From: Candidatus Campbellbacteria bacterium
GTDB taxonomy: Bacteria; Patescibacteriota; Minisyncoccia; Phycocordibacterales; JAXHMZ01
Assembly (NCBI GenBank): GCA_034521025.1
Contig: JAXHMZ010000003.1
Location: forward strand, 79,726-143,725
DNA: 64,000 nt
Direction of reading: 5' to 3'
This document shows, one piece after another, positions 9,804 to 64,000 of this stretch. Position 1 is the stretch's first letter. The number at the start of each line of letters is the position of its first letter. The notes beneath the pieces were generated by a model. The model made no database searches. It was not told the origin of the DNA and saw only the letters and a list, made by a program, of their open reading frames with translations. A program made the position numbers and the translations under genes.

Positions 9804-11144
9804 TTAGATATTCTTCTTGGCCTTTTTTAGGCGCTCTACTGTCTTCAGTTTACCGAGAACTGAAGCAATAGTAAATGGATCAAGAGACTGCTCTTTACCA
9901 GAAAGAGCTACTCTCATGGGCCAAAGCACCTCTCCTCTTCCCTTTTCTGTAGCATATTCCCATACTGCATTTTTTATAAACTCTGGTTTTTCATAAGAAT
10001 CTAGTGATTCTAATAGATCGATCAATTTATCTAGGTGTGATCTGGTCTGCTCTGAAGGCGTGTCTTTCCAGTTTATTTTTTCTGGGTCTATCTCGGGAGA
10101 GCTCAATAAGTAGTCATACTCCCCTTCTGATGCTAGGCCTATAACATCTTCAAAGACTTCGGTCCTCTCACAAATTGCTTCTCTCAAGCTCTCACTTTCT
10201 TGTATTAATTCATAAAGCCCTTCCGGCAGATCATTTTTTCTTGATTTGAGAAAATTCATTAATTTGGTATCTCTTTCTTCTTTGGAAAGCAATTTTATGT
10301 GCTCTGAATTAAACCAGCGCAACTTTTCAGTTGAAAATATTGCACCGCCTTTTTGTACCCTATTAATATCAAAAAGATCTATCAATTCCTCTGTTTTAAA
10401 CACCTCCTTTTCTCCTCCTGGATTCCACCCCAAAAGAGCTAGGTAGTTCAAAATGGCTTCTGGCAAAAAACCTTGTTTCTGATATTCCGTAATCGAAACT
10501 GTCCCGTAGCGTTTAGACATTTTTGAACGATCTGGGGCTAATATCATCGGAATATGGGCATAAAAAGGACGCTCAACACCCAAAGCTTCAAGAATGAGTA
10601 TTTGCCGCGGAGTATTTGAGATGTGGTCTTCTCCGCGAATAATATGCGTTACGCCCATCTCCTTATCATCAACTACAACCGCCAAATTATACAGGGGCTC
10701 ATTTTCACTTTTGGCTATCACAAAATCACCCAATTCCGTTGTGTCAAAAGAAACTTCTCCCCGTATTATGTCCTCAAATCGAATAGATTTGTTAGGGTTT
10801 TTGAATCGAATGACGCTCTGACGTTCGCCCGAGGGTTCTTCAGACACATAAGCGCATCCGGAATCTATGAGCTTTTTGATGTATTCTTGATATATTTCTG
10901 TGCGTTCTGATTGCTTATATAACTCATCATAATAGATGCCAAGCCATTCAAAGCCGCTCAAAATATCTTCTTCAAATTCTCTCTTAGATCGTTCTGTGTC
11001 CGTGTCCTCAAGACGTAAAATAAATTTGGCACTATTTTTTCTAGCGTAAAGGAAGTTAAATAGCGCGGTGCGCACACTACCTATGTGTAGTGGACCAGTT
11101 GGTGACGGAGCAAACCTAACTACATTTTGTTGTTCTTTGGTCAT
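9804..11144 (-). CDS. gltX: glutamyl-tRNA synthetase
   Basis: 446 aa; PSPTGPLHIGSVRTALFN (HIGH), KMSKR; class I GluRS. Confidence 0.95.
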   Translation of the reverse strand: MTKEQQNVVRFAPSPTGPLHIGSVRTALFNFLYARKNSAKFILRLEDTDTERSKREFEEDILSGFEWLGIYYDELYKQSERTEIYQEYIKKLIDSGCAYVSEEPSGERQSVIRFKNPNKSIRFEDIIRGEVSFDTTELGDFVIAKSENEPLYNLAVVVDDKEMGVTHIIRGEDHISNTPRQILILEALGVERPFYAHIPMILAPDRSKMSKRYGTVSITEYQKQGFLPEAILNYLALLGWNPGGEKEVFKTEELIDLFDINRVQKGGAIFSTEKLRWFNSEHIKLLSKEERDTKLMNFLKSRKNDLPEGLYELIQESESLREAICERTEVFEDVIGLASEGEYDYLLSSPEIDPEKINWKDTPSEQTRSHLDKLIDLLESLDSYEKPEFIKNAVWEYATEKGRGEVLWPMRVALSGKEQSLDPFTIASVLGKLKTVERLKKAKKNI

Positions 11145-16848: not shown

Positions 16849-16890
16849 GCCGTCTCTTGCAAAAAAGCAAGAAACGGCTTGGCTCTAGTA
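16849..16890 (-). terminator. intrinsic terminator ending the Cys-rich small-protein transcription unit
   Basis: minus strand AAGCCGTTTCTTGC-TTTTTT-GCAAGAGACGGCTT followed by TTTTGTTTG. Confidence 0.65.
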
Positions 16891-17130
16891 AAACTGGTCG
16901 GGGCGCATTTGCCTGAAGCAGGATTCACAGAAAATCTCCTCTTCTTTGCCAACTCCTTTCGTAGAATAGAGAAATTCTCCGACGTTTGAGCAACCCCTCG
17001 TAGCGCAGACAGTCTCTGAGTTACTTGGTTCTCTTTGTATCTCCTTATCACTGCCTTTACCCACTTCACTAAGCAATCGACGGAACCGTCTGTAGTCATT
17101 CAAAGGAAACCTCTCGTGGTATCTCGGCAT
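16885..17130 (-). CDS. small Cys-rich hypothetical protein (zinc-ribbon-like)
   Basis: 81 aa; C-x4-C ... FCESCF; strong SD (ACGGAGGATAA-ATG); ends just before terminator. Confidence 0.5.
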   Translation of the reverse strand: MPRYHERFPLNDYRRFRRLLSEVGKGSDKEIQREPSNSETVCATRGCSNVGEFLYSTKGVGKEEEIFCESCFRQMRPDQFY

Positions 17131-19988: not shown

Positions 19989-20402
19989 TCACCTCTTGGC
20001 TCGGTCGGCTACTAGCTTTTCCCAAAGGTCCTCGATATCGACCTCTGGAAGCAAGCCACTCAAAGCGGAGAAACGCCTGCTGGCGCCTCGGGCCTTGGCT
20101 ATATCACGATGCACGCGATCATGGAAGCCTACGTCCGTCGACACGAACGAAAGTAGTACCCCATAAGCCGCAGTCCATCCATCGGATTCCTCGTCGTACG
20201 TATCGAGTGCCTTGAGCGCTTCATCGATACGGTCGGCGTCTTCCGGTGGGAAGATCTCACGAGCAAACCTGCTGATGTCGCCAGGACCGCCGGCAAAGAG
20301 TGCGGGCCGTTCATCAAAGATGCAACGGAGGAAGATCAGTAATTGAAGCTGGAAGAGCTCAAGGTCTGAGTCTAGAGTGAGCTCTGGTGTTTCGGACGAC
20401 AT
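19989..20402 (-). CDS. hypothetical acidic protein (GC-rich island)
   Basis: 137 aa; own promoter and strong AGGAGG SD; approx 55% GC vs about 40% background. Confidence 0.5.
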   Translation of the reverse strand: MSSETPELTLDSDLELFQLQLLIFLRCIFDERPALFAGGPGDISRFAREIFPPEDADRIDEALKALDTYDEESDGWTAAYGVLLSFVSTDVGFHDRVHRDIAKARGASRRFSALSGLLPEVDIEDLWEKLVADRAKR

Positions 20403-20638: not shown

Positions 20639-21097
20639 TCAATCGTTCAAGCCGATCTGGAGATCATAGAGCTCGCGGTAAGTGCCGTTCTCTTTTTCAA
20701 TAAGTTCACCGTGCGTACCCTGCTCGACGATCGTGCCGGCCTTGAGTACAAGAATCTGGTCTGAGCGACGCACGGTTGAGAGTCGATGTGCAACGATGAT
20801 CGTGGTACGCCCCTCCATAAGTTCCTCAAGTGTCTCGGTCAGATCATGCTCGGTCTTCGCATCAAGCGCGGATGTGGGCTCGTCAAGGATAAGTATCGCC
20901 GGATCTTGTAGATACGCGCGCGCGATCGCCACACGTTGTTTTTGGCCGACCGAGAGCTTCACCCCTCGCTCGCCGACCAGCGTGTTATATCCGTCAGGAA
21001 ATCGCTGTATAAACTCATCCCCGTGCGCATATTTCGCTGCTTGCTCTACCTCTTCGCGCGTCACGTCCGGAGAGCCATACGCGATATTGTAGTGCAC
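20639..21097 (-). CDS. ABC exporter, C-terminal part of NBD (fragment after frameshift)
   Basis: 152 aa; YNIAYG..., LSGGQKQR signature, Walker B ILILDEPTSALD, H-loop. Confidence 0.8.
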   Translation of the reverse strand: MHYNIAYGSPDVTREEVEQAAKYAHGDEFIQRFPDGYNTLVGERGVKLSVGQKQRVAIARAYLQDPAILILDEPTSALDAKTEHDLTETLEELMEGRTTIIVAHRLSTVRRSDQILVLKAGTIVEQGTHGELIEKENGTYRELYDLQIGLND

Positions 21098-22311
21098 TGT
21101 ACTGAGTTAAAGAGTGCGATCTCTTGTGATACCACTCCGATCTGGCGACGCACGTTTTCAAGATCGATAGATCTCGTGTCTATTCCGTCAATAGCAACAG
21201 AGCCGGAGGTTGGGAAATAGAATCCCGCCACCAGATCAATGATCGTACTCTTCCCCTCACCGGAGCGCCCCACAAGTGCCGTTCTCGTGCCAGCCGGTAT
21301 AGTAAACGAAACATCAGTCAGTACTTCATTCTCTGTGTCATACGCAAATGAAGCATGGTCGAATACGATCTCGCCTCGCAAGGTCGGCGTCCCCGCTCCC
21401 TCCGGATGATAGATCTCTTGTGGCTCTTCAAAGATCTTTTCAGCCTCCAGAAGATTTGTCACATAATTCTGAAGCCATTGCCACATATCGTTGAATTCTA
21501 TGAATGGGCCATAGAGGAGGCCTGCATACGCATTAAAAGCAACAAGTTCACCAACGGAAATGACTCCCTGCGTTACAAAAATAATACCTAGAACGTAGAT
21601 CGCTATTTGCGTAATCAACACCAGCACTCGCTGAAAGAAGCTCATTCGCTCCCAGATACCGCGTATATGAAGAAATGTTCCCAATAGAGGTCCAGTAAAA
21701 TTATGTGCGATGGTATTCCCTTCCCGGTTTTCGTATGCGGCAATTTTTACCTCTCGCACTTGTGATATGACATTATAAACAGTACCGTGAGCTTCACGCT
21801 GATATTGGTGATATGAGCGCTCCAGTGGGGCGAGCGGAGCAAGCGTCGATCGGGCAACGACCACGTACATTGCTACGGAAACCACAAGTATCAGAGCAAG
21901 CCATACATTAATAAAGAATGCGAACGAAAATGCCGCCACGAGAGTCAGAAGTTTCGGCGCGATCTGAAGAATGTCCTGCGTCACGCTTTGCATCGTAAAC
22001 GCACCCATATTCATATTCTCCATCACTGAACCGAACCGCTGCTCTTTGTGAAATGACAGCGGAAGACGCAACAAATGATTATACCCCCGCACGCGAAAAC
22101 TGATCGACATACGCTCAGCGAGCGAGAGCGACCTGATCGAGAGCGCCCAGTCAACCGCGTACGTGACGAGCTGTATGACACACCACAGCGCAAGGATCAC
22201 AAATACGAACATCACTTCACGGCGAAAGTCCGACGGTAGATCGGCGATCGTCGTCGATGATGCGACCGGTGGTGATTGAATAAGCGCGTCCCAAGCGCGA
22301 AGTACGCCCAA
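21061..22311 (-). CDS. ABC exporter, TMD plus Walker A part (fragment before frameshift), MsbA/multidrug-exporter type
   Basis: 416 aa; 6-TM exporter domain then GRSGEGKST Walker A; TTG start; overlaps downstream fragment in another frame. Confidence 0.8.
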   Translation of the reverse strand: MGVLRAWDALIQSPPVASSTTIADLPSDFRREVMFVFVILALWCVIQLVTYAVDWALSIRSLSLAERMSISFRVRGYNHLLRLPLSFHKEQRFGSVMENMNMGAFTMQSVTQDILQIAPKLLTLVAAFSFAFFINVWLALILVVSVAMYVVVARSTLAPLAPLERSYHQYQREAHGTVYNVISQVREVKIAAYENREGNTIAHNFTGPLLGTFLHIRGIWERMSFFQRVLVLITQIAIYVLGIIFVTQGVISVGELVAFNAYAGLLYGPFIEFNDMWQWLQNYVTNLLEAEKIFEEPQEIYHPEGAGTPTLRGEIVFDHASFAYDTENEVLTDVSFTIPAGTRTALVGRSGEGKSTIIDLVAGFYFPTSGSVAIDGIDTRSIDLENVRRQIGVVSQEIALFNSVQCTTISRMALRT

Positions 22312-22435: not shown

Positions 22436-23149
22436 TTACTCAGTCACCCCTATCGCACGACGTACTTCCGTCATTTTCTGTTCTGCCTGCTCGCTCGCCT
22501 TTTTCGCCCCAAGAGTGAGAACGTCGCTCACGTATGCTCGGTCTTTCAGGAGTTCGTTATATCGTTCACGAAGAGGTGCAAAATATTCTAATAATTTCAG
22601 AGCTAGCATCTTTTTTGAATCTCCATAACCGATTGAACCCTCGCGGTACTTACTCTCCAGATCTTCGATCTCTTCTTTTGACGATACAAGTTTATGAAGA
22701 TAATAAACGGTATCGGAATCAGGATCTAAGGGCTCACCAAGTGGCGTCGAGTCGGTCTGAATCGACATCACCGCGTCGCGAAGCTCATCGTCAGAACCAA
22801 AAAGCGGTATAACATTGTCATAGCTCTTGCTCATTTTGCGTCCGTCAATACCCGGGATCGTCTCAACGTCAGAGAGTATATGCGGCTCTGGGAGTTTAAA
22901 CGTCTCGCCATATGCGCGGTTGAACGCGTCCGCAGTGTCCCTCGCGATCTCGAGATGCTGTTTTTGGTCTTTGCCGACCGGAACTATATCAGCATCGTAA
23001 ATCAGAATATCGGCTGCCATTAACATAGGATAGTTAAACGTCCCTGCGTTTATTTCCTCCCCTTTTTCTTGCGCGTCTTTGTATGCGTGTGCCCGTTTAA
23101 GGTAAGAGATAGATGTAAGGCATTCAAATATCCAAGCGAGCTCTGTCAC
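22436..23149 (-). CDS. trpS: tryptophanyl-tRNA synthetase, C-terminal 237 aa (fragment)
   Basis: ELAWIF..., GKDQKQHLE, KMSKS; class I TrpRS. Confidence 0.85.
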   Translation of the reverse strand: MTELAWIFECLTSISYLKRAHAYKDAQEKGEEINAGTFNYPMLMAADILIYDADIVPVGKDQKQHLEIARDTADAFNRAYGETFKLPEPHILSDVETIPGIDGRKMSKSYDNVIPLFGSDDELRDAVMSIQTDSTPLGEPLDPDSDTVYYLHKLVSSKEEIEDLESKYREGSIGYGDSKKMLALKLLEYFAPLRERYNELLKDRAYVSDVLTLGAKKASEQAEQKMTEVRRAIGVTE

Positions 23150-23168
23150 CTCAGGAACGTCAGATTGT

Positions 23169-23411
23169 TTAAAAAGGGTTACTCTGTCCTTGGATCGAGT
23201 CCAACTGCAAGATACGCCGCCGCCACGTCAAAAGAGCTCTCCTTGCGAGCTTATCGGAACCACGAACGGTGGTTAGTGCGTGAAGGTCGGCAATAAAGAC
23301 AAGTGCATCATACTTGTCCTGCAGTTCTACAAACTGACGCATAGCACCAAAGTAATTACCTATGTGCAAACGCCCGGTCGACTTTATTCCTGAAAGAAGT
23401 GTTTTGCTCAT
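23169..23411 (-). CDS. trpS: tryptophanyl-tRNA synthetase, N-terminal 80 aa (fragment)
   Basis: MSKTLLSGIKSTGRLHIGNYFGAMRQFVELQ (HIGN motif); reading frame lost after ...HALTTVRGSDKLAR. Confidence 0.8.
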   Translation of the reverse strand: MSKTLLSGIKSTGRLHIGNYFGAMRQFVELQDKYDALVFIADLHALTTVRGSDKLARRALLTWRRRILQLDSIQGQSNPF

Positions 23412-35909: not shown

Positions 35910-36650
35910 TTAGCCCTTACAAGGAATCACCATCCGTGCATACTCGTGCACAGTCACGGTCTCGCTTGTCCAGCGAGCTTCAACGTGTCCGAAACGACCA
36001 CACCGGCCGACCGGACGACCAAAGCTCAATGAAGTGAACCCGGTCATCAACATTCCATCCGCAGGGGTGAAGTTGACAGTATTGGTGATACCGTTCTGGA
36101 CCACCTCCTGCACACCCAAACCATGCGAACTGATGTCGGTAAGAACAAATGAACCCTCAGACAAGTGCAGTTCAGACACGTGCAGTTCTGCACTGTCAAA
36201 GCTTACCAGCGAATCATCCATGTATGTGTCATCGAACACCAGCGGAAATGACAGGAACAAGGTAAGCATTTCAGGCGAGTCCACGTAAACGTTGCTCACC
36301 ACTCCACCTGAAGCATCAATGGTCACGCTCTCATCCGAGAAAAGACTAACGTCCCTCGTGACGCTTATCGAGCCAGACTCGGTGAACGTGAAAACTCGCA
36401 CGCTGTAGTCTCCCGGTGGAAACGTAAATACCTGAAACCGATCGACGAAATTATTCATCGTATCGACTGGTTCGCCGTCTTCGTTGTAGATGACCAAGCT
36501 ATTGATAGCCTCGCCATCAGGCGTAGAGCTTACCACCTGAACCTCGAGATCGAGAAAGTCTCCCGATCCTTCCGGCGCTTCGACGACCGAAGAGCAAGCG
36601 CTGATAACGAAGGCGACCAGTACCAGCAAGAAACCTGTAAAGTTCTTCAC
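35910..36650 (-). CDS. hypothetical lipoprotein (GC-shifted, own promoter/terminator)
   Basis: 246 aa; lipobox LVAFVISAC; GTG start with GGGAGG SD; about 50% GC. Confidence 0.55.
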   Translation of the reverse strand: MKNFTGFLLVLVAFVISACSSVVEAPEGSGDFLDLEVQVVSSTPDGEAINSLVIYNEDGEPVDTMNNFVDRFQVFTFPPGDYSVRVFTFTESGSISVTRDVSLFSDESVTIDASGGVVSNVYVDSPEMLTLFLSFPLVFDDTYMDDSLVSFDSAELHVSELHLSEGSFVLTDISSHGLGVQEVVQNGITNTVNFTPADGMLMTGFTSLSFGRPVGRCGRFGHVEARWTSETVTVHEYARMVIPCKG

Positions 36651-50082: not shown

Positions 50083-51432
50083 TTATAGCTTATTGATAAT
50101 CTCCCTAAACTGCTCACCCCGATCAAATTCATTTTTAAACATTCCAAATGAGGCGAATCCCGGAGAAAGAACTACGGCTGTACCCGAGTCAGCCAAGGAA
50201 AGAGCGGCCTCTACGGCTTCTTTCATAGAAGAAACGGGTTGAACGTTTTCAAATTTGCTTGCCGCAAGATCTGCTTGTAAACGCTCCGTTCCCTTTCCCG
50301 ATAACAACACTATCTCTGAGGCGTTGTCTTTTATGCTCTCGGCAAATTCTTTTATATCAAGCCCCTTATCCGAACCGCCGGCTATTAATATGATCTCGTA
50401 TTCATCCTTAAGCGAATCAAGCGCCGCAATGGCCGCTTCAGGAGTAGTGGCGGTCGTATCGTTAAAAAACGTTATTTCTTCTTTTACTCTTATCTTTTCC
50501 AGTCGCCCGGAGACGCCAACAAATTCGACTATATGTCCCTTCGCGACCTTTTCATCAACTCCGAGAGCATACAGTGCTTCTAAGGCGAGTCTCGCGTTAA
50601 ATCGATTATGGTCTCCGGCAATTGATAGCTCGGGAACTTCTCTAAGGTCATCCTTCGAACAAACTCGAACGTTTTTGTGCGGCGCCGGCAAATTGTATTT
50701 TTTCATATACTCATAAGCGCTGCTCCCGATTATAAGAATATCGTCTGTTTTTTGGTTTGCGTATATGGCTGACTTATCAAAAAAATATGCTTCCATATCG
50801 TTCTTGTAGTAATCCATATGGTCCGGCATAAAGGTAGTAAAAACAGAGATGTGGGGAGAAATGCCACGACTGCGAAATCCTTGCAATTGCCAACTGTCTA
50901 ATTCAAGTACGGCTATATCCCCTTCTTCCGCTTGGTTTAAGTAAGCAAGTGTTGAGACACCCTGTAAGTTTCCGCCGAGAAAGATATTCTTTGAAATGTG
51001 GCCTGCGCTCTTTTCTGATTCAAGTGCTCTAAATATCATTTGCGCCACTGTCGTTTTCCCTCTGGTTCCGGTAACACCTACCACTTTTGCTCCTGAAAGA
51101 TCAGCAAAAAGCGCAGTGGACATCTCAACTGGGATATCGTTTTTTCTCGCCTCCTCTATATACGGAGAATCAAGAGGCACCCCGGCCCCCTTGATAATAA
51201 GATCTTTGCTTTGAAAATCCTCAAACCTATGACCACTTAATACAAACTTTATATTATTAAAACCCTGAAGACGCTTTAAGGACGGCGCCAATTCTTCTTC
51301 AGTTTTAATATCCGTAACAGTCAGATCGGCTCCCTTTTGAGCCAAAAATTCAACATCTCCAACCCCACGCCCAAGCAAACCCAGCCCCATCACTGTTATT
51401 TTCTTGTCTTTAAAGTAGTCTTTTTTATCCAT
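50083..51432 (-). CDS. murD: UDP-N-acetylmuramoylalanine--D-glutamate ligase
   Basis: 449 aa; KKITVMGLGLLGRG N-terminal, Mur ligase domains. Confidence 0.9.
   Translation of the reverse strand: MDKKDYFKDKKITVMGLGLLGRGVGDVEFLAQKGADLTVTDIKTEEELAPSLKRLQGFNNIKFVLSGHRFEDFQSKDLIIKGAGVPLDSPYIEEARKNDIPVEMSTALFADLSGAKVVGVTGTRGKTTVAQMIFRALESEKSAGHISKNIFLGGNLQGVSTLAYLNQAEEGDIAVLELDSWQLQGFRSRGISPHISVFTTFMPDHMDYYKNDMEAYFFDKSAIYANQKTDDILIIGSSAYEYMKKYNLPAPHKNVRVCSKDDLREVPELSIAGDHNRFNARLALEALYALGVDEKVAKGHIVEFVGVSGRLEKIRVKEEITFFNDTTATTPEAAIAALDSLKDEYEIILIAGGSDKGLDIKEFAESIKDNASEIVLLSGKGTERLQADLAASKFENVQPVSSMKEAVEAALSLADSGTAVVLSPGFASFGMFKNEFDRGEQFREIINKL
51383..51425. repeat. 43-nt direct repeat copy 1 (murD start codon region)
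   Basis: near-identical to 51572-51614. Confidence 0.85.
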
Positions 51433-51571
51433 GGTATTAATTGTAAGAGATTATTCGCAAGCTGGGTTTAAGAAAGGGGTCGGGAAAACATTTGTTTTCC
51501 CGCGTCGGAGAGCAGTGTAGCAAAGCGAAACGTTGAGAACCGAGGGTTCTCAAGGAGCCAAGCGACGCCAA

Positions 51572-51614
51572 GCCCCATCACTGTTATTTTCTTGTCTTTA
51601 AAGTAGTCTTTGTT
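51572..51614. repeat. 43-nt direct repeat copy 2 (decoy murD start: MNNNKDYFKDKKITVMGLG then diverges, stop at 51468)
   Basis: agccccatcactgttattttcttgtctttaaagtagtcttt repeated 189 nt apart. Confidence 0.85.
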
Positions 51615-51748: not shown

Positions 51749-52036
51749 CTACTCAAACTCAGGAATACCTTCTATTTCGTGATACACACTGAGATCAATG
51801 AATCTCCTCTCTCTTTGGCGTCCGAATGGATCTCTCAGAAAAACAACTTCGTGTACATATCCATTGCCCGGCAAAAGCTCACAAGAAAGTCGGCTTCTGC
51901 CAGTTGTAATCACTTGTATGCGCGAATCAGCATTGCACACAAAGCATCTATCTCTCTCCATCAATGAACTACAGAATAGATTGAAGTCTATTCGTGTCGG
52001 TCTTGAACGAAGATCCGGGTGCGAAGTCGGCATCAT
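51749..52036 (-). CDS. hypothetical 95-aa protein (second gene of cassette)
   Basis: ATGATG start overlapping upstream stop (ATGA), GGGGAGG SD; 3 Cys in N-half; possible toxin-antitoxin partner. Confidence 0.45.
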   Translation of the reverse strand: MMPTSHPDLRSRPTRIDFNLFCSSLMERDRCFVCNADSRIQVITTGRSRLSCELLPGNGYVHEVVFLRDPFGRQRERRFIDLSVYHEIEGIPEFE

Positions 52037-52608
52037 GCGACCTCCCCTGTATAGGGCGCAAGCGCGTTCTGAAGCTTTTCAGAAAGCAAGTCTTTTGTTT
52101 TAGCCGATACGGATCTGTGTACGCGGTAGAGGAAAAACCCACCTCCAACTTGCCATTCGTCTCCATTGATTTTCTTAACCCTCTGAAGACCAAGTACTTC
52201 GATCGGATGTACCGTTAATTTGTTGCCGGAAACTTCGTTCCAAGCGAGTGCATCAGACAAATTCAAATCTAGGTAAACATCACGCTCTTTAAGCTTTTTG
52301 GTAATCTTACTTACCGCCTTACTACGCTGTCCTTGAATGATGCGCTCAAAATCATCTGGATAGTAAGCTCTTGTAAGTCCAAGACCTTTAAATCCAAATT
52401 TCGCAGTTTTGCTGCGCATCAGATCCTGAAGAGCTCGCTCTTCTTCACGTACGTGTCGATCGACACGATCGAGTCCTATGAACAAAAAAAGTGCAGCGAT
52501 TTTCACACGCGGATCGTATGCAACATCGTCGTGTAGTGTAACAGTATCCTTTTTCGAGAGTTTATAGTCGCATACTGCAATTGCCAACCCGGGAAACTGC
52601 TCTGACAT
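52033..52608 (-). CDS. hypothetical 191-aa protein (first gene of cassette)
   Basis: strong AGGAGG SD, own promoter-like TTGAAT-17-TAAGTT; no recognisable motifs. Confidence 0.5.
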   Translation of the reverse strand: MSEQFPGLAIAVCDYKLSKKDTVTLHDDVAYDPRVKIAALFLFIGLDRVDRHVREEERALQDLMRSKTAKFGFKGLGLTRAYYPDDFERIIQGQRSKAVSKITKKLKERDVYLDLNLSDALAWNEVSGNKLTVHPIEVLGLQRVKKINGDEWQVGGGFFLYRVHRSVSAKTKDLLSEKLQNALAPYTGEVA

Positions 52609-54795: not shown

Positions 54796-55190
54796 GGAGG
54801 AATCTCCGCTCTATCTAATAGGCTTCTTTTCAATGTGCGCGAGTCCTCGGCTCAAAGCTTCCGGGCTCGTCATTATCAGGTAAACGCGCCCTTAGAAGCA
54901 TTTACCGCTCTATTTGAATTTGAGTTTTTTAAAGGGTGCGCGATCCAAGACTCGAACTTGGGACCTCGTCATTATCAGGTGATCGCGACCTTAGGAGCAA
55001 TCACCGCTCTATCCAATAGGCTTCTTTTCAATGTGCGCGATCCAAGACTCGAACTTGGGACCTCGTCATTATCAGTGACGCGCTCTAACCATCTGAGCTA
55101 ATCGCGCACATTGAAAAGAAACAATACATCTGAGCTAATCGCGCACTCTTTAAAAAACTTTCCTGCGACTGAGTAAATCGCGCGCAAAAA
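54796..55190. repeat. array of tRNA-Ile-derived partial copies and about 48-nt direct repeats
   Basis: 3-prime half of tRNA-Ile (anticodon loop to acceptor end) repeated at 54937-54978 and in degenerate form at 54866-54896; aggag(g/c)aatc(t/a)ccgctctatc(t/c)aataggcttcttttcaatgtgcgcga at 54796-54843 and 54992-55039; tRNA 5-prime fragments ctgagctaatcgcgcac at 55092-55108 and 55131-55147. Confidence 0.8.
55034..55107 (-). tRNA. tRNA-Ile (anticodon GAU), CCA not encoded
   Basis: manual fold: acceptor GCGCGAT/ATCGCGC, D arm GCTC-AGATGGTTA-GAGC, anticodon arm CGTCA-CTGATAA-TGACG, T arm CCAAG-TTCGAGT-CTTGG, discriminator A. Confidence 0.85.
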
Positions 55191-55303
55191 ATGAAAAGCA
55201 TTTAATAAATTGCACCGAATACAAGTAAAAATATATCAGTTTTCAGCCCTAAAAACAAGAAAGCCCCGAAGCTAATTAAAGCTTGGGGCTCTTTGAAAAG
55301 GAA

Positions 55304-55432
55304 CTAGATGATTCCAACAGCTACGAACACAGCGACAGACAGTGCCGCGACTGCGACAAGAGACATCAAAAAGGCCTTCTTGTTCTTGTCTTCCCTGTTC
55401 ATTTGTTCTTCTAATTCGAACTTTTCTTTCAT
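55304..55432 (-). CDS. small membrane peptide (42 aa)
   Basis: MKEKFELEEQMNREDKNKKAFLMSLVAVAALSVAVFVAVGII; strong SD GAAGGAGGTAAATA-ATG; followed by hairpin terminator. Confidence 0.4.
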   Translation of the reverse strand: MKEKFELEEQMNREDKNKKAFLMSLVAVAALSVAVFVAVGII

Positions 55433-55671
55433 TATTTACCTCCTTCAAGGTAGAAGTGAAGAGACAGTACAAGCATAACGATTACCAAGAATGTCCAGGT
55501 AAAGAGTACGCTTGTAATCGCCGCAAGAAGTGTTTTGTTAAGTACGACGAAATCAGACAGATCGCCGGACAAAAACACAACCACACCGATAAGAATCTCG
55601 AACAGTAGGATAAGCACTGGAATCATTTTCAAGGTGTCCGAAAAACTTCCGGGATTTTTGCTGTAGCCCAT
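55432..55671 (-). CDS. small membrane protein (79 aa, 2 TM)
   Basis: strong SD AAAAGGAGGCCTATC-ATG; own TTGACA-16-TATAGT promoter. Confidence 0.5.
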   Translation of the reverse strand: MGYSKNPGSFSDTLKMIPVLILLFEILIGVVVFLSGDLSDFVVLNKTLLAAITSVLFTWTFLVIVMLVLSLHFYLEGGK

Positions 55672-55694: not shown

Positions 55695-55722
55695 ACTATA
55701 CCAGTAATCCTGCTTTTGTCAA
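55695..55722 (-). promoter_or_regulatory. sigma70-like promoter for small membrane-protein genes located between 16S and tRNA-Ile
   Basis: minus strand TTGACA-16-TATAGT 25 nt upstream of SD. Confidence 0.5.
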
Positions 55723-55917
55723 TACTTAGTACTCATAACCTATAAAGCCGCCCCTTGCGAGGCGGCTTGTTATTTTCTGCACAATTTCTTTTGCTTCATT
55801 CATCTCGGTGTCGCTGTTTCCGAGAATAGCGGAAAGATTTTGGATTGTTCTTTCAAACACACGCGCGATAAACGCACGTATCGACTCGATAAATCTGAAA
55901 ATTCAGATAAATCAAAA

Positions 55918-57405
<1,488 letters not shown>

Positions 57406-57624
57406 TGCAGGTCGCCCTGCACTTATGAATGAAGCAAAAGAAGCTATGCAGAATCTTTTGCTTTCAACCGCGCAATTATAGAAATATATAGTTGCGCGTT
57501 CCGAATACTTTTCAGTATCCGGTGGACTTGTTTGCTGTGTGATTATTCAATTTTCAAAGTCCTATCATATATTGTATCGCGCAAATCCGCGAAACAAAAG
57601 TCCACCAATTCGTGGACACCCTCA

Positions 57625-57652
57625 AGTATACTGAGATTGAGCTCGAAGTCAA
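57625..57652 (-). promoter_or_regulatory. candidate rRNA promoter
   Basis: minus strand TTGACT-16-TATACT about 215 nt upstream of 16S 5-prime end. Confidence 0.4.
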
Positions 57653-57684: not shown

Positions 57685-58446
57685 TTATCCCCTTCCCTCC
57701 TTTTGATGTAGTGTTTTAACCACATTCTCAACGACTTCTTTCATTTCTCTAAAATCTTTGTAGTTCCACCATTCTTCACGCTCCTCACCAAACAAAACAT
57801 TGCTTACACTAAACACAATAAGATATGGTTCTTTCACATACGATGTACTATCCTCTACTCTAACTAGATACGTTGTAGTTAAATAAGAAGCATCACCCAC
57901 GCCCGTTTTATATATTGGGTCGCCATTGTCAGTATATCCGAATTCATTAGCTATACATTCTTTATACTCATTTACCGCATAGTCTATTTTATACCAACGA
58001 TCTGAAAGTCCTTCGTATACAACACCACCGCCCAAACCTCCGCTATTATAGATGTCACGACTTAATCTATGGACTCTGACAGTAAAGGCATTGTAAGGTC
58101 TATCTTTTTTATCTCTTTTCAATATCACGCGATGGTAAGAACTGTGGTCGCTGTTTACAGTCTCAAATTCCGCACTTGACGGAATTTGTACATTATAAGA
58201 ATTACCCAATGATACGAGACGGCTTTCATCGCTGACATCAGAGCCGTTGTCAGCAATACTTTCTTCTGAGTTAAAGCAGTAATTCTTCTTGCCGTCGTCA
58301 TCTCCTGCTTCTTCTTTATTAGATTCAGCAACCTCTTTTTCAGCAGAAGGAGTAGGCGGTTTATCGTCATTATGAGATCCCGCAAAAAACGCTAAGGTCC
58401 CAACCACAACAAGAGTAACTAATAAAACCGGCAAAAAATATTTCAT
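57685..58446 (-). CDS. secreted hypothetical protein
   Basis: 253 aa; N-terminal signal/TM; no recognisable domain. Confidence 0.5.
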   Translation of the reverse strand: MKYFLPVLLVTLVVVGTLAFFAGSHNDDKPPTPSAEKEVAESNKEEAGDDDGKKNYCFNSEESIADNGSDVSDESRLVSLGNSYNVQIPSSAEFETVNSDHSSYHRVILKRDKKDRPYNAFTVRVHRLSRDIYNSGGLGGGVVYEGLSDRWYKIDYAVNEYKECIANEFGYTDNGDPIYKTGVGDASYLTTTYLVRVEDSTSYVKEPYLIVFSVSNVLFGEEREEWWNYKDFREMKEVVENVVKTLHQKEGRG

Positions 58447-58635
58447 GAACGAAAAATACCATTATAATAAAGTACTGTCAAGGTAAATCGGGAGCTCTTT
58501 GTTGTTTCCGTGATTCGTTCGATTGCGTCATTCTAAGAGTCTTACCAAAGATCTGATTAATTGATATAGACGTTGAGGTCAAGTAATTGAACCCCGGAAT
58601 TTTCCGGGGTTCTTGTGAATCTGACTCTTAGCTGT

Positions 58636-58842
58636 CTACAGCCTGCTTTCGGCGATCTGTTCCGGACGTATCTCTTCATTGTTTACAAGCGAAAAACAAA
58701 TACGCCCCACAAATTCACCTCCCAAAACAATTTCAACAGTTACAGCCGCTCCGATTATGTCAACCTCTCCTAGGTAAAATCCTTCAAGCAACGTACGATC
58801 ATTCAATCTGACAGGGGGAGCTTTTTCTAAAAACATAACCAC
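58636..58842 (-). CDS. small TOBE/Mop-like (molybdate-binding-domain-like) protein
   Basis: 68 aa; pattern R.N.L.G...VDIIGAAVTVEIVLGGEFVGRI resembles Mop domain; weak. Confidence 0.35.
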   Translation of the reverse strand: MVMFLEKAPPVRLNDRTLLEGFYLGEVDIIGAAVTVEIVLGGEFVGRICFSLVNNEEIRPEQIAESRL

Positions 58843-58909
58843 TCCTCTCTAAGGAGAGATTCTCACCTGCCCATCTATTTGTCAAATCTATAAACGTTTT
58901 GGTTTATTT

Positions 58910-59500
58910 CTAGTTAGAGCCCTGCGAGTCAAATATCTCGCCAAGAGGAGTACCGTTTACAAATATCTCAGCGCTTTCTACAGTAGAAAATTGAAGTACG
59001 GTTTGTCTGATCTGTTCTTCAAAACGAGGATCGTCACAAACTCCACCCACACTTACATCGCCTTCTATATACACAGTAGCGACTCCGTCTTTAACTGACG
59101 CGCTTTCAACGCCCAAATCGGAATTATCAAGCGCATTATAGTATCCTTCATACTCATCTCCTGTAATTGAAAACAATTCGCCCAAAGCTGCTCTTAGCAC
59201 TCCGGCTGTAGGCTCTATGTCACGACTAATTGCGACCATCTCGTCACCACAACCAATTCCTTCGCCTTCAACTGCCGCTTCAACGTCAACCAAAAAGATA
59301 TCTACAGAGTCTGACAAACTCTCATCTTCGTCCTCCGGGTCGTCCGTGTCGTTATCTACCACGCTATCTTCTTGTTCTTCGGAATTGTTAACACCATTTA
59401 CCGGCGTGTCTGTGTCTTGGCTCAAATTAGCTATAACAAACACTAGAAGCGCGATTGCCACTATTCCTATAATGATTGTAATTATTTTATTCATATTCAA
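58910..59500 (-). CDS. secreted hypothetical protein with acidic region
   Basis: 196 aa; signal/TM anchor, D/E-rich linker, C-terminal domain with two Cys. Confidence 0.5.
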   Translation of the reverse strand: MNMNKIITIIIGIVAIALLVFVIANLSQDTDTPVNGVNNSEEQEDSVVDNDTDDPEDEDESLSDSVDIFLVDVEAAVEGEGIGCGDEMVAISRDIEPTAGVLRAALGELFSITGDEYEGYYNALDNSDLGVESASVKDGVATVYIEGDVSVGGVCDDPRFEEQIRQTVLQFSTVESAEIFVNGTPLGEIFDSQGSN

Positions 59501-59511
59501 AGCTATGGTTA

Positions 59512-60423
59512 TTATTTCTGCTTACGATTGTAACGCCATCTTTCGATCGTTATCAATAGCGGACTGGCAAAAAAGATAGAAGAATAGGTCCCGGCTATTA
59601 CACCAACCAAAAGGGTAAGTGCAAAAATTTGTGTGGTTGAGCCGCCAAATACATAAAGGGATAGAAGCGCCAAGCTCGTAGTAAGAGAAGTATTTATCGA
59701 ACGAGTGATCGTCTGGTCTATTGAATGTCCGATCGTTGTTTCAAAGTCTTCCTCGTTATTCTTCTCTTCATTTCGACGCAAGTTTTCCCTAATGCGATCA
59801 AAGACAACGATCGTATCGTTTACCGAGTAACCCAAAATAGTCAAAAGCGCTACCACAAAAAGCGAATCTACTTCGGCGCCAGCCACCACACCAAGTATAG
59901 TAAACACACCGGTCGTGACTGTTATGTCATGAATTAAGGTGGCTATTGTAGCACCTCCGTACATCCAAGACGAAATAGGTTTTGAGACATGCCGGAAGGC
60001 AAAAGCCACGAACAGAACAATAAGCACAACCACTATACTTATCGCAATTATAGATTTTTGCCGTAATTCAGACCCGATAGTCGGACCAACCGAACTTTCT
60101 CTGTCGATAGTAACTCCCTCAATCGATGTAAGAGCGTTCGTAACGCCCGCGTGTATATCCTCGTCCAAGAAAGGCGTGCGAATCACAAATCCACTATCAC
60201 CGAACTCTTGGACCATCGCTCTGTCTTCAGGCAAATTCTCCGAGACAGCCTCCGTTATCGTCTCCTTTTCTACCTCATTACCCTCCACCGATACTTCTAT
60301 TATAGAACCACCTGTAAATTCAACGCTAAATCTCAATCCAAAGATCAAAACGGAAAGCAATGAAAGGACTACCAGTGTAAGGCCAATTCCTAGAAAAATT
60401 TTTCTGTTGCGTGCTATAAACAT
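59512..60423 (-). CDS. secF: protein-export membrane protein SecF
   Basis: 303 aa; VEFTGG motif, 6 TM, SecD/SecF C-terminal domain. Confidence 0.85.
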   Translation of the reverse strand: MFIARNRKIFLGIGLTLVVLSLLSVLIFGLRFSVEFTGGSIIEVSVEGNEVEKETITEAVSENLPEDRAMVQEFGDSGFVIRTPFLDEDIHAGVTNALTSIEGVTIDRESSVGPTIGSELRQKSIIAISIVVVLIVLFVAFAFRHVSKPISSWMYGGATIATLIHDITVTTGVFTILGVVAGAEVDSLFVVALLTILGYSVNDTIVVFDRIRENLRRNEEKNNEEDFETTIGHSIDQTITRSINTSLTTSLALLSLYVFGGSTTQIFALTLLVGVIAGTYSSIFFASPLLITIERWRYNRKQK

Positions 60424-60458
60424 ATTATTTTGAAAATCCTGAAGCGAACATTTTACGT

Positions 60459-60992
60459 TTAGACTCGCTGTGCTTTTCTGAAGAAACGGCGTAAAGGAAT
60501 GTCTTTGTAACTACCAAGAGCTGAGATCATAGAGACCAGAACACCAATACCGAACACAAGAGCAAACCCCTGTACGATCGAGCTTCCAAAGTAGAAGAGC
60601 ACAACCGCCGAGATCAAAGAAGACAAATTAGCGTCTCGAACTGCCGGCCATGCTCTGTCAAAGCCATCCTGAATCGCACCTAAGCTCCCCTTTCCACTCT
60701 GAAGCTCTTCTTTGATGCGTTCAAAAATGATCACGTTGGCATCCACCGCCATACCCACGGAAAGTATGAAAGCGGCAATTCCGGAAGCGGTTAAAGTTAC
60801 AGGAATGAGTTTGAAAAGCGAAAGCATGACCAATGTATAGAACACAAGAGCAACCGCCGCTACTATCCCGGGTAACCTATACCACACGATCATAAATCCG
60901 AGTATCAGAGCAAACCCTATAATACCCGCGGAAACTCCGTCATCCAGAACCTGTTGGCCGAGAATTGGCCCCACGGAATTAGTAGAAACCAA
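60459..60992 (-). CDS. secD: SecD, C-terminal TM domain (fragment 3 of 3)
   Basis: 177 aa; SecD/F TM bundle; TTG start of ORF track; in frame +1 relative to middle fragment. Confidence 0.8.
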   Translation of the reverse strand: MVSTNSVGPILGQQVLDDGVSAGIIGFALILGFMIVWYRLPGIVAAVALVFYTLVMLSLFKLIPVTLTASGIAAFILSVGMAVDANVIIFERIKEELQSGKGSLGAIQDGFDRAWPAVRDANLSSLISAVVLFYFGSSIVQGFALVFGIGVLVSMISALGSYKDIPLRRFFRKAQRV

Positions 60993-61026
60993 CTCAATCG
61001 GAACCGGAAGCGCTCCAAAACTCAGA

Positions 61027-61551
61027 TCACGCGCGCAACTTTCTCGCTTCTTCGGGAGTAAACTGCCCGGAGATCACCGCCTCGCCGGTTGGTATCTCCT
61101 CTCTTATGACAGGAGTTGAGATAACTTCTCCATCAAGAAATATTGCCAAAACCTCCCCGACGTTATCACGAGTGATCTCAGCGAAAAGATCCCTTCCTTC
61201 ACTATTAAACCTAATGTTAACTATAGGCTCACCGGTTGTCTGGTCGAACTGAACAGAAGCACTTTTGACGTAGCGTCCTGTGAGTTCGGTCTTCTCGTAA
61301 AGATCCTCGGGTGATAATTCAAGCTCGGCTGTGGTTCCGTTTTGGCTTCCTTCAGAGCTCTCGCCTTCAGTTGTCTCTCCCTCGGAGTTACCTTCATTTA
61401 TATTAAGGCCTTCCAGTTGAGACTGATCAATTTCAAGTTCGCTTTCGTCTTTTCTCAACCGAAATTCCAAAACCGGAGTTTCGCCTATCATAGCGATAGC
61501 TTCATTGATATCCGTCACTCCGGGCAAGTTCAACAATGAGCCTGTTCTCAC
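61027..61551 (-). CDS. secD: SecD, periplasmic domain (fragment 2 of 3)
   Basis: 174 aa; LPGVTDINEA..., LAIFLDGEVISTPVI...ISGQFTPEEARKLRA typical SecD P1 head/base. Confidence 0.8.
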   Translation of the reverse strand: MRTGSLLNLPGVTDINEAIAMIGETPVLEFRLRKDESELEIDQSQLEGLNINEGNSEGETTEGESSEGSQNGTTAELELSPEDLYEKTELTGRYVKSASVQFDQTTGEPIVNIRFNSEGRDLFAEITRDNVGEVLAIFLDGEVISTPVIREEIPTGEAVISGQFTPEEARKLRA

Positions 61552-61864
61552 CTCCGGCTAATCCTCCCTTCTCCACTTGTACACGTGGCTCGGAAACACC
61601 AAAAAGATTGACACGACGCTCAATAACGTCGCGCAGTGCCGACATAGAGGCCTCTACTTCTTCCGGAGCTACCTCGGATGTATCCGCGTTATATATAAGT
61701 TGCGTTCCGCCGGATAGATCAAGTCCGTATTTGAAAGCAAATCCCGAAAAGCGAGAATCTTCTTTTTCAGAAAGCACAACAAAGGCCCCCAGGAGTATTC
61801 CGATCAGTACTATCACTACAGATACAATTCTCGCGTTTCTCATCATAGCGGCTACATTATACAT
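61502..61864 (-). CDS. secD: SecD, N-terminal TM1 and start of periplasmic domain (fragment 1 of 3)
   Basis: 120 aa; TM helix then GLDLSGGTQLIY and GGENRLIVEL. Confidence 0.8.
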   Translation of the reverse strand: MYNVAAMMRNARIVSVVIVLIGILLGAFVVLSEKEDSRFSGFAFKYGLDLSGGTQLIYNADTSEVAPEEVEASMSALRDVIERRVNLFGVSEPRVQVEKGGLAGGENRLIVELARSDGYQ

Positions 61865-62432
61865 TTGTTTTATCGTCTGACAAGGTGTCCTTATTATATC
61901 TCCTTAAATATTTTAGAAACTTGTCATGAAAGAGTTCTCTGTACACGTAGGCAAATAGAGCGCCGATTATAAATCCGGCAATTATATCAACAGGCCAGTG
62001 GACTCCAGCAACTACCCGCGCTATTGCTATCAAAACAGCGATGGCGAACAAAAAGCCACCCAATTTTTTGTTGTAGTACAAAGCAGCAATTGCGAGCGCT
62101 CCATAGGTAGCCGCGTGCCCTGACGGAAACGCGTCCGCCCCACCGTGCTCAAATAGAACCGTTATTTCATCAAAAAACAACGGCGGGCGCTCTGTCAGAA
62201 ATAGTCTTTTTAAAACTTGCGTATATACAAAGGCCGCGGTTGCCGGAGCGAAAATAGCGATAAAAGGATAGACAAATTTTCTCCCTTCTATGTACAACAA
62301 ATACAGCAGTACGCCGATCGCAAGCGTTAATCCGGCTCCTTCAGAAAGAAACAGAAAAATAGCGTCAAGGATCTCGCCCTTCCCCGCAAGAGTATTAAGT
62401 AATAAGAATAGTTGTATATTTAGCTCACTCAT
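61857..62432 (-). CDS. PAP2-family phosphatase (undecaprenyl-diphosphatase-like)
   Basis: 191 aa; KRLFLTERP, PSGHAATY, ARVVAGVHWPVD motifs. Confidence 0.8.
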   Translation of the reverse strand: MSELNIQLFLLLNTLAGKGEILDAIFLFLSEGAGLTLAIGVLLYLLYIEGRKFVYPFIAIFAPATAAFVYTQVLKRLFLTERPPLFFDEITVLFEHGGADAFPSGHAATYGALAIAALYYNKKLGGFLFAIAVLIAIARVVAGVHWPVDIIAGFIIGALFAYVYRELFHDKFLKYLRRYNKDTLSDDKTNV

Positions 62433-62722
62433 TGCCCTTTATTATTCTCTTCAATAGACTTGGCAACATTTTCAAAAAGCTTGATTACCGTTATCGGACC
62501 GACTCCTCCCGGCACAGGTGTAACCAAAGAAGCTTTTTCATAGACCTGCCTATCTACATCCCCTGACACTTCACCGGCAGACTCACTGGTCCCGGCATCT
62601 ATCAATACAACTCCCTCTTTGACCATATCCTTATCAATGAGACCAGCCTTGCCGACTCCGGTAACGATCAGATCAAACTCTCTGAGGCGATTCAGGTCCG
62701 AGTCGACTGTCAAACATCTCAA
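62429..62722 (-). CDS. folD: FolD, C-terminal part (fragment)
   Basis: 97 aa; LIVTGVGKAGLI, TPVPGGVGPITV. Confidence 0.8.
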   Translation of the reverse strand: MRCLTVDSDLNRLREFDLIVTGVGKAGLIDKDMVKEGVVLIDAGTSESAGEVSGDVDRQVYEKASLVTPVPGGVGPITVIKLFENVAKSIEENNKGQ

Positions 62723-63255
62723 ATGCTGCGCCTTTGTTCTCCAGCAAAAGAGAAGACTGGCTTCCCTACCAAATTTCCATAACCAACAATGGCTATTTTT
62801 TTATCTAGAAGGTCTATATTATTGCGCGACAAGATCTCTTCCACCGCTGCTGCTACCGGTGGCACGAACACATTTTCATTTTTCCGGTAAAGCTCGAGCG
62901 CGTTCGGAGAAAGACAGTCAATATCTTTTTCCTTTGGCACAATATCCAAAAATGTTTCCCGATTAAAGTACGAAGGCAGAGGCAGCTGCACCACTACCCC
63001 GTCAGATCTTCCGACTACGAGAGACTGTAGGATCTTTTCAGCAACTGATTCTATAGTGTTTTCGGGTAATTCATGAATATGAAGATCAACTCCAATTCTC
63101 TTTGCCACTCGTCTTTTGATGTTCAAAAAAGACCTGGTGGAAGGATCCTCACCAAAACTAAGAAAATCAATGTGCGGTTCTTTGTCGTACGCGGCGAAAG
63201 TTTTCTTTAGTTTACTCTCTATATCTCGCGCGATTTTTCTACCATCTACTATCAT
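62719..63255 (-). CDS. folD: FolD (methylenetetrahydrofolate dehydrogenase/cyclohydrolase), N-terminal and NAD(P) part (fragment)
   Basis: 178 aa; MIVDGRKIA..., IAIVGYGNLVGKPV. Confidence 0.85.
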   Translation of the reverse strand: MIVDGRKIARDIESKLKKTFAAYDKEPHIDFLSFGEDPSTRSFLNIKRRVAKRIGVDLHIHELPENTIESVAEKILQSLVVGRSDGVVVQLPLPSYFNRETFLDIVPKEKDIDCLSPNALELYRKNENVFVPPVAAAVEEILSRNNIDLLDKKIAIVGYGNLVGKPVFSFAGEQRRSI

Positions 63256-63335
63256 ATAAGAATATCTGCTATCTTATTGCCTATTTCCCTAAAATCACTC
63301 TCGTCCTTTCCTCTGGTAGTTTCCGCCGCGGTTCC

Positions 63336-64000
63336 TCAGCCGAATTCCGGAAGGCTCTGCGGACTTCTTTCATCAAAAGGTATAGTGTTTTTGTTCGTAA
63401 CGATTCCTTCCACCTCCAATTTCTCCGCTGCCTCATCACCCGAAACTCCTTTTCCTTCCTGCCAAGTATCAACGAGCAAGAGGTGCGTGTCTGTGCCTCC
63501 TGAAACCAAACGCAATCCTCTTTCGCTTAGCGTGTCCGCGAGTGCCTTTGCGTTTTTAGCCACGTCTTCGGCGTAAGTCTTGAATTCAGGCTTTAGTGCT
63601 TCAGTAAAGGCTACTGCCATAGCCGCTATCTTATTCATATGAGGCCCGCCTTGGATCCCGGGGAAAACCGCTTTGTCTATTTTCGCGGCATATTCCGGAG
63701 AAGAAAATATTATCGCGCCACGCGGACCGCGAAGAGTTTTGTGGGTGGTGGTCATCACGGTATCGGCAACCGAAAAAGGCGATTGATGAACACCACCTAC
63801 GACCAATCCGGCAATATGTGAAATGTCCGCGTGCAGATAAGCCCCGACAGAATCGGCTATCTCTCGCAACTTCCTAAAATCTACCTCGCGCGGATAAGCG
63901 GTAAAACCGGCAACTATCATCTTGGGTTTCGTCTCTACAGCGATCTTTTTTAGCTCGTCATAATCGATCATCTCTGTATCTCGCGATACTCCGAATTTCT
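63336..64000 (-). CDS. glyA: serine hydroxymethyltransferase, C-terminal about two-thirds (5-prime end beyond window)
   Basis: TTTHKTLRGPRG (PLP lysine region); frame stays open upstream to window edge (…KFGVSRDTEMIDYDEL…). Confidence 0.9.
   Translation of the reverse strand, partial: KFGVSRDTEMIDYDELKKIAVETKPKMIVAGFTAYPREVDFRKLREIADSVGAYLHADISHIAGLVVGGVHQSPFSVADTVMTTTHKTLRGPRGAIIFSSPEYAAKIDKAVFPGIQGGPHMNKIAAMAVAFTEALKPEFKTYAEDVAKNAKALADTLSERGLRLVSGGTDTHLLLVDTWQEGKGVSGDEAAEKLEVEGIVTNKNTIPFDERSPQSLPEFG

Follow-up and report, generated by a model that had tools for sequence, protein, structure and literature searches.

A Campbellbacteria 16S rRNA without the CCUCC anti-Shine-Dalgarno core, and a persisting minority of GGAGG-led genes

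The 16S rRNA unit and its 3′ end

The window (the whole 64-kb stretch of Campbellbacteria DNA analyzed here) contains a full-length 16S rRNA gene on the minus strand, followed by two small open reading frames and a tRNA-Ile gene (Table 1). The match of the 16S gene to the Rfam model of bacterial SSU rRNA is full-length and above the gathering score, and its bit score lies inside the range of the full-length 16S genes at twelve other Patescibacteria loci (1286–1489 bits). Because no 23S (LSU) rRNA is present within the 64-kb window, we regard the 16S gene as a stand-alone unit. A promoter-like site lies upstream of it, for which position is the sole argument, since such sites are no more frequent across the region than in shuffled sequences. 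The leader and the trailer share a 27-nt complementarity, read directly from the sequence, which would form the pre-16S processing stem. Duplex prediction with the long leader and trailer also returned this helix, at energies similar to those of shuffles, and we rely only on the directly visible complementarity. A hairpin with a T-run occupies the same post-trailer position in the related loci L132, L151, and L153 (L numbers designate loci outside the window), and a T-run is found there in L125.

Table 1. Features of the 16S rRNA locus and Shine-Dalgarno (SD)-led genes in the window.
Feature	Position	Strand	Basis or remark
Promoter-like site TTGACT-16-TATACT upstream of 16S	57652..57625	minus	Consensus scan, 10/12 matches
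Leader half of pre-16S processing stem, CUGCAUAGCUUCUUUUGCUUCAUUCAU	57451..57425	minus	Complementary to trailer 55803..55777
16S rRNA gene, full length	57404..55916	minus	Rfam RF00177, 1360.7 bits, model positions 1-1533
Helix 45, ACGGCUACC-GGAA-GGUGGUCGU	55951..55930	minus	Covariance-model alignment; invariant in four-sequence alignment A3
16S 3′ tail, GGAAUAUUUAAUUU	55929..55916	minus	Without CCUCC, without GAUCA; covariance-model alignment
Trailer half of processing stem, AUGAAUGAAGCAAAAGAAAUUGUGCAG	55803..55777	minus	Conserved in relatives (alignment A3)
G+C-rich hairpin after 16S trailer	55768..55745	minus	Position of clear terminators in relatives
Promoter-like site of small-ORF cassette, TTGACA-16-TG-TATAGT	55722..55695	minus	11/12 matches
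SD-led small membrane protein (79 aa, orf79)	55671..55432	minus	AAAGGAGG 6 nt before ATG
SD-led small membrane protein (42 aa)	55432..55304	minus	GAAGGAGGU 6 nt before ATG
tRNA-Ile(GAT), downstream of 16S	55033..55107	minus	
Two-gene SD-led cassette 52608/52036 (191 aa, 95 aa)	52608..51749	minus	Own terminator hairpin
SD-led putative lipoprotein, GC 0.52	36650..35910	minus	GGGAGG 4 nt before GTG
SD-led ORFan, GC 0.56	20402..19989	minus	AGGAGG 5 nt before ATG
SD-led Cys-rich small protein	17429		GAGGUG leader
SD-led Cys-rich small protein	17130..16885	minus	GGAGG 4 nt before ATG
SD-led HExxH protein	8386		

The 16S gene (55916–57404) is unlinked from 23S and stands in a neighbourhood ordered SHMT-FolD-PAP2-SecD-SecF, then 16S, then tRNA-Ile, which also takes in 57685–63971 of the window; the same order is kept across the clade, in L102, L122, L129, L139, L148, and L154. 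The tRNA-Ile(GAT) gene is embedded in an array of its own partial copies (54826–55196), namely three copies of the 5′ end (55090–55196) and three of the 3′ half with spacer (54826–55075). In L154, L053, L148, L124, and L128, tRNA-Ile likewise has degenerate tRNA halves downstream of it. In the Patescibacteria loci L102 (6641–6729) and L069 (873–956), matches to a group II intron domain (RF01998) were observed about 200 nt 3′ of the 16S end.

The decoding-site and helix 45 sequences of the window 16S are intact in the covariance-model alignment, and the conserved AAGUCGUAACAAGGUA is present 5′ of helix 45 in a focused alignment of the 3′ end. The usual bacterial tail after helix 45 is GGAUCACCUCCUUU, and the window has GGAAUAUUUAAUUU instead, which the covariance model aligns opposite the consensus GGAUcACCUCCUUu. 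A preliminary description, made from the sequence alone, had noted that the 16S 3′ end lacks the canonical CCUCC and that no CCTCC occurs within 150 nt downstream; the interval it gave, 55900–55945, covers helix 45 and the tail, with the sequence written in the RNA sense. Both observations stand, because alignment to the Rfam SSU model places no CCUCC in the tail, and the next CCTCC on the rRNA strand lies about 1.1 kb downstream, at 54800, within the repeated tRNA-Ile spacer. A sequence scan found neither CCUCC nor CUCC anywhere in the whole window 16S, and the trailer likewise contains no CCUCC. We also considered whether the tail had been displaced by an intervening sequence, with GAUCACCUCC further 3′. 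This reading was rejected because the sole same-strand CCTCC between 54000 and 56000 is the one in the repeated spacer at 54800, and because the trailer already pairs with the leader.

CCUCC in related 16S genes

A loose helix-45 pattern returned 120 loci of many phyla from species-representative genomes, which served as a background sample of tails; 108 of them carry a tail of the GGATCACCTCCTT type. Exactly the helix 45 of the window occurs in three of the 120 (Patescibacteria UBA2105, Patescibacteria MM_PC_MetaG.mb.223, and Candidatus Kaiserbacteria NORP88), and CCTCC is absent from all three tails. Searching metagenomes for exactly this helix 45 gave 32 further loci and thus a total of 35 related loci. 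None of the 35 has CCTCC within 60 nt of helix 45, which indicates that the loss is old and lineage-wide rather than the result of a pseudogene or an assembly error.

The tails of the clade fall into families, namely GGAUUCAUUCCGAUUGG, GGAUUAUUUCAAAUUGAAC, GGAUUAUUUUAAAA, and GGAAYAUUUAAUU, the last of which is common to the window, L125, L151, and L132. The 16S identity of these three loci to the window is 97% (L125, 794 aligned nt), 92% (L151), and about 85% (L132, 3′ end), so that the variant tail is corroborated by independent assemblies of relatives. In the alignment of the window with three relatives (A3), the 13-nt tail is invariant except for one position, and beyond it a variable hairpin is followed by conserved trailer boxes.

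The quality of the window sequence deserves attention at this point. SecD is split into three frames by frameshifts, and FolD, an ABC transporter, and a class I (Trp/Tyr) aminoacyl-tRNA synthetase into two each (split genes at 60459–61864, 62429–63255, 20639–22311, and 22436–23411), whereas SecD (457 aa) and FolD (277 aa) are intact in L154. Base-level accuracy or gene decay is therefore a concern for the window, and the split genes would fit a 16S pseudogene or a 3′ end produced by an assembly or insertion artefact. However, the full-length match at a score usual for the phylum, the intact conserved elements, and a tail and trailer kept in independent metagenomes at about 85–97% 16S identity all speak for a genuine gene, and we consider a pseudogene or artefact barely credible.

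Gene starts with and without GGAGG

Most gene starts in the window show no sign of an SD. Upstream of 74 starts, G accounts for only 12–22% of the bases at positions −6 to −12, where A and T are dominant, and the mean energy of pairing to the canonical anti-SD does not drop at the SD position. Because counting at the longest-ORF start under-called the Firmicutes control, we adopted a start-agnostic test, in which a gene of at least 100 aa is scored when any candidate start in its first 50 codons has GGAGG or AGGAG at a distance of 4–11 nt, with matched internal starts as controls. By this test, an SD was found in 11% of the window genes against 10% of the internal control starts, compared with 48% against 10% in Firmicutes isolates. 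The three measurements agree with the preliminary description, which had reported housekeeping gene starts without an SD. The start regions also fold weakly, with −3.3 kcal/mol for 40-nt windows between −20 and +25 and about −5.5 for the flanks, and 29 of the 60 same-strand neighbour pairs overlap or sit within 15 nt of each other. These features support a mode of initiation that would be SD-independent and would use open A/U-rich starts together with translational coupling.

A re-tuned pair, in which the A/U-rich tail would pair with a co-evolved A/U-rich upstream motif, was weighed against the same starts. Several k-mers are enriched upstream (TAATAA, ATAATA, TAAAT, and AATAT-like), the last two of which would suit such a motif, and the tail GGAAYAUUUAAUU is itself conserved among close relatives. 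However, replacing the real tail by 300 shuffled ones did not weaken its pairing with the upstream regions (mean of −1.85 kcal/mol for the real tail and −1.84 for the shuffles, p = 0.51), and we therefore find no re-tuned SD. The enriched k-mers are TAA-rich and probably reflect the stop codons of close-packed upstream genes and the general A/T richness. Earlier surveys likewise reported no co-evolved SD in organisms that lack the anti-SD (PMC6107228). We regard a re-tuned pair as highly improbable.

A minority of genes is nevertheless SD-led, as the preliminary description had pointed out. In the window, GGAGG lies 4–11 nt before the 5′-most start in six of the 73 genes of at least 70 aa, against 1.4% in the control (p = 5e-4), and two smaller ORFs after the 16S gene add to these six. 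The same excess was observed in the clade relatives, with 10 of 170 starts GGAGG-led against 0.6% in the control (p = 2e-7). Among six SD-led proteins scanned, no significant Pfam family was found, the best being a sub-threshold match of the HExxH protein 8386 to DUF6647, and the 191-aa protein of the 52608 cassette has no Pfam match. An SD-led gene of L151, with weak similarity, occupies the same position as this cassette. The distance from promoter to start does not clearly separate SD-led from other genes.

Directly after the 52608 cassette, the 5′ end of a murD-like gene is duplicated over 47 nt at 96% identity (51380–51426 vs 51568–51614). The copy lies 188 nt upstream of the real start and may mark an insertion or rearrangement.

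Of the two small ORFs that follow the 16S gene, the 42-aa ORF has an ATG that overlaps the stop codon of orf79 (TAATG). Both ORFs are syntenic in L125, L151/L154, and L153, which also lack the anti-SD, and L132 has a positional counterpart. In L125, L151/L154, and L153, a TTGACA-16/17-TATAAT promoter is followed by a leader, GGAG(G) 5–6 nt before the start, and a homologous protein. Promoter, GGAG(G), and the 5–6 nt spacing are kept in four related lineages, and both promoter hexamers are invariant in five (alignment A2). The leaders vary among lineages in both sequence and length, and protein identity is only 30–37%; the orf79 homologues of L151/L154, L125, and L153 have a common N-terminus, MGYxKNPGSF. 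A homology search with orf79 alone returned only itself, whereas a profile of three orf79 sequences found one new member (P0010/L153), which is likewise SD-led. In L154, a 20-kb syntenic relative, four genes are SD-led, all of them small, hypothetical, and flanking the 16S gene and tRNA-Ile, and the remaining 17 called genes, mostly housekeeping, are without an SD. Because the distance from SD to start is constant whereas that from promoter to SD is variable, the constraint appears to be linked to translation rather than to be a relic. The retained spacing suggests that the motif still matters for something.

The preliminary description had proposed that several SD-led genes are GC-shifted and that they were recently acquired from SD-using donors by a host that cannot use SD pairing. 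The GC shift is seen in the class as a whole at third codon positions (GC3 of 0.49 against 0.40, p = 8e-4), but total GC is clearly shifted in only two genes, 20402 and 36650, and not in the other SD-led genes. Taken as a general explanation, in which all SD-led genes are recent imports and their SDs decaying relics, the proposal draws on this GC3 difference, on the two strongly GC-shifted ORFans, on the 52608 cassette adjoining the duplicated murD 5′ end, and on the missing Pfam matches. However, GC3 is also raised in orf79, which is vertically inherited, and the 16S-adjacent cassette is syntenic and SD-led, with its spacing kept, in diverged lineages without an anti-SD. The same GGAGG enrichment extends over the whole clade, and for 20402, the one ORFan searched, neither a homologue beyond itself nor a donor was detected. 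We therefore consider import of the whole class unlikely, though transfer may apply to the GC-shifted ORFans 20402 and 36650.

Heterogeneous ribosomes, with a second 16S copy that has an intact anti-SD elsewhere in the genome and translates the SD-led genes, would account for the conserved SD-led minority, and the analysis covered 64 kb of a 149-kb contig of a metagenome-assembled genome. Against this, CCUCC is absent in all 35 clade members found, and one rRNA operon is usual in CPR genomes. Surveys of complete CPR genomes checked all 16S copies (PMC10783764; PMC9297842), and one complete Campbellbacteria genome was recorded without CCUCC (PMC10783764). A second copy of this kind is, in our judgment, improbable. 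A more tentative idea, which we hold to be rather unlikely on the present sequence comparisons, is that the GGAGG leaders of a small group of accessory genes have a function in Campbellbacteria and the related clade and are recognised by a partner outside the 16S tail, such as a CCUCC-bearing RNA acting in trans, an RNA-binding protein, or a different ribosomal element.

Near the 16S gene, the rRNA strand has a single intergenic CCUCC. It lies in a hairpin at about 54816–54785 (minus strand), 3′ of the tRNA-Ile array, with a 5-bp stem and a 15-nt loop that exposes AUUCCUCC; a U-run comes after the hairpin. L154 has a counterpart at about 10995–11030, with a different stem (CAAGC/GCUUG). Because the hairpin does not occur in more distantly related members of the clade and represents one of the variants of a repeated spacer, it was rejected as a trans anti-SD, and such a role is left as speculation.

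Other SD-led genes were seen in relatives. A conserved family of about 280 aa is SD-led (GGAG core 6–8 nt before ATG) at three Kaiserbacteria-like loci, L123 (8606–9442), L141 (303–1145), and L053 (1163–2035); their 16S tail is GGAUUCAUUCCG, the UUCC of which could pair weakly with GGAG or GGAA. The SD-led genes L124 508–1586, L146 2657–3034, and L150 5337–5714, at loci without an anti-SD, have the leader UUUCC(U/G)(U)AGGAGGAAAAA-AUG in common, and its UUUCC could fold back onto GGAGG/GGAAA.

Proposed history of the locus and known systems

We consider it highly probable, from the sequence comparisons above, that the window holds a functional 16S rRNA of a Campbellbacteria (Parcubacteria/Paceibacteria) bacterium whose anti-SD was lost in an ancestor of the clade, with SD-independent starts for most genes and a GGAGG-led minority. 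The anti-SD core and the adjacent GAUCA would have disappeared from the 16S tail of that ancestor by C-to-U/A decay. With a tail that lacks CCUCC, the classical SD:anti-SD helix cannot form on this ribosome. For most mRNAs, start choice would then be made by SD-independent means: by start regions that are A/U-rich and fold weakly, as in Bacteroidetes and reduced endosymbionts, by termination-reinitiation coupling between tightly packed or overlapping genes, and probably in some cases by leaders that are very short or missing. A minor class of accessory genes, promoter-proximal and for the most part small, keeps canonical GGAGG leaders, at least one such cassette being vertically inherited with its motif apparently under constraint. 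The earlier view that the host cannot use SD pairing is an inference from the missing CCUCC, and the conserved SD spacing hints at a role for the motif. GGAGG leaders with fixed spacing in lineages without an anti-SD would not be expected under a pure model in which the SD is irrelevant.

The locus offers a clean and well-supported case of a bacterial ribosome that is unable to form the SD:anti-SD helix, and it bears on the understanding of SD-independent initiation. For gene calling in CPR genomes, it implies that start prediction based on ribosome-binding sites will mislead. If the SD leaders of the small genes are indeed constrained without a visible anti-SD, they would imply that the motif is read by a partner so far unrecognised, and if the GGAGG leaders are functional, the Shine-Dalgarno motif would have outlived its canonical partner.

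Campbellbacteria have been described as SD-scarce and without CCUCC (PLoS One 2024, PMC10783764). The genome in that study is a different one from the same candidate phylum with the same trait, an unstructured 16S tail without CCUCC and few SD-led mRNAs, and its SD-led share (5%) compares with about 8% by GGAGG in the window. The conservation of the SD-led minority comes from the present analysis and is not described in that paper. Only 48% of Parcubacteria were found to have the anti-SD motif CCTCCT (Tsurumaki et al. 2022, RNA 28:1041, PMC9297842). According to the authors, an SD helix presumably does not form in the lineages without it, which overlap with the group lacking uL1 (PMC9297842). 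The clade sampled here (Campbellbacteria, Kaiserbacteria-like) behaves like that subgroup; the loss is tied there to the uL1-lacking group, and about 20 annotated window proteins include none of the rplK/rplA region. Because CCUCC loss and SD scarcity have been published for Campbellbacteria and for a Parcubacteria subgroup, the core finding is a further example of a known trait.

In Bacteroidetes, mRNAs are also largely without SDs, but CCUCC is present and sequestered in the ribosome (Jha et al. 2021, PMC7797042), whereas it is absent from the window rRNA. A sequestration of this type was rejected for the window, since it needs a CCUCC in the 16S tail and the covariance-model alignment shows none. 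Reduced endosymbionts, haemotropic mycoplasmas, and certain Flavobacteria have also been reported to lack the anti-SD through loss (Lim et al. 2012, PMC3457768; Amin et al. 2018, PMC6107228; Nikolaeva et al. 2021, PMC7782861). The window resembles these cases in the C-to-U/A decay of CCUCC, in having neither a G-rich upstream signal nor a co-evolved replacement motif, and in the association with small genomes. Unlike them, it belongs to an independent lineage (CPR) in which conserved SD-led small genes persist.
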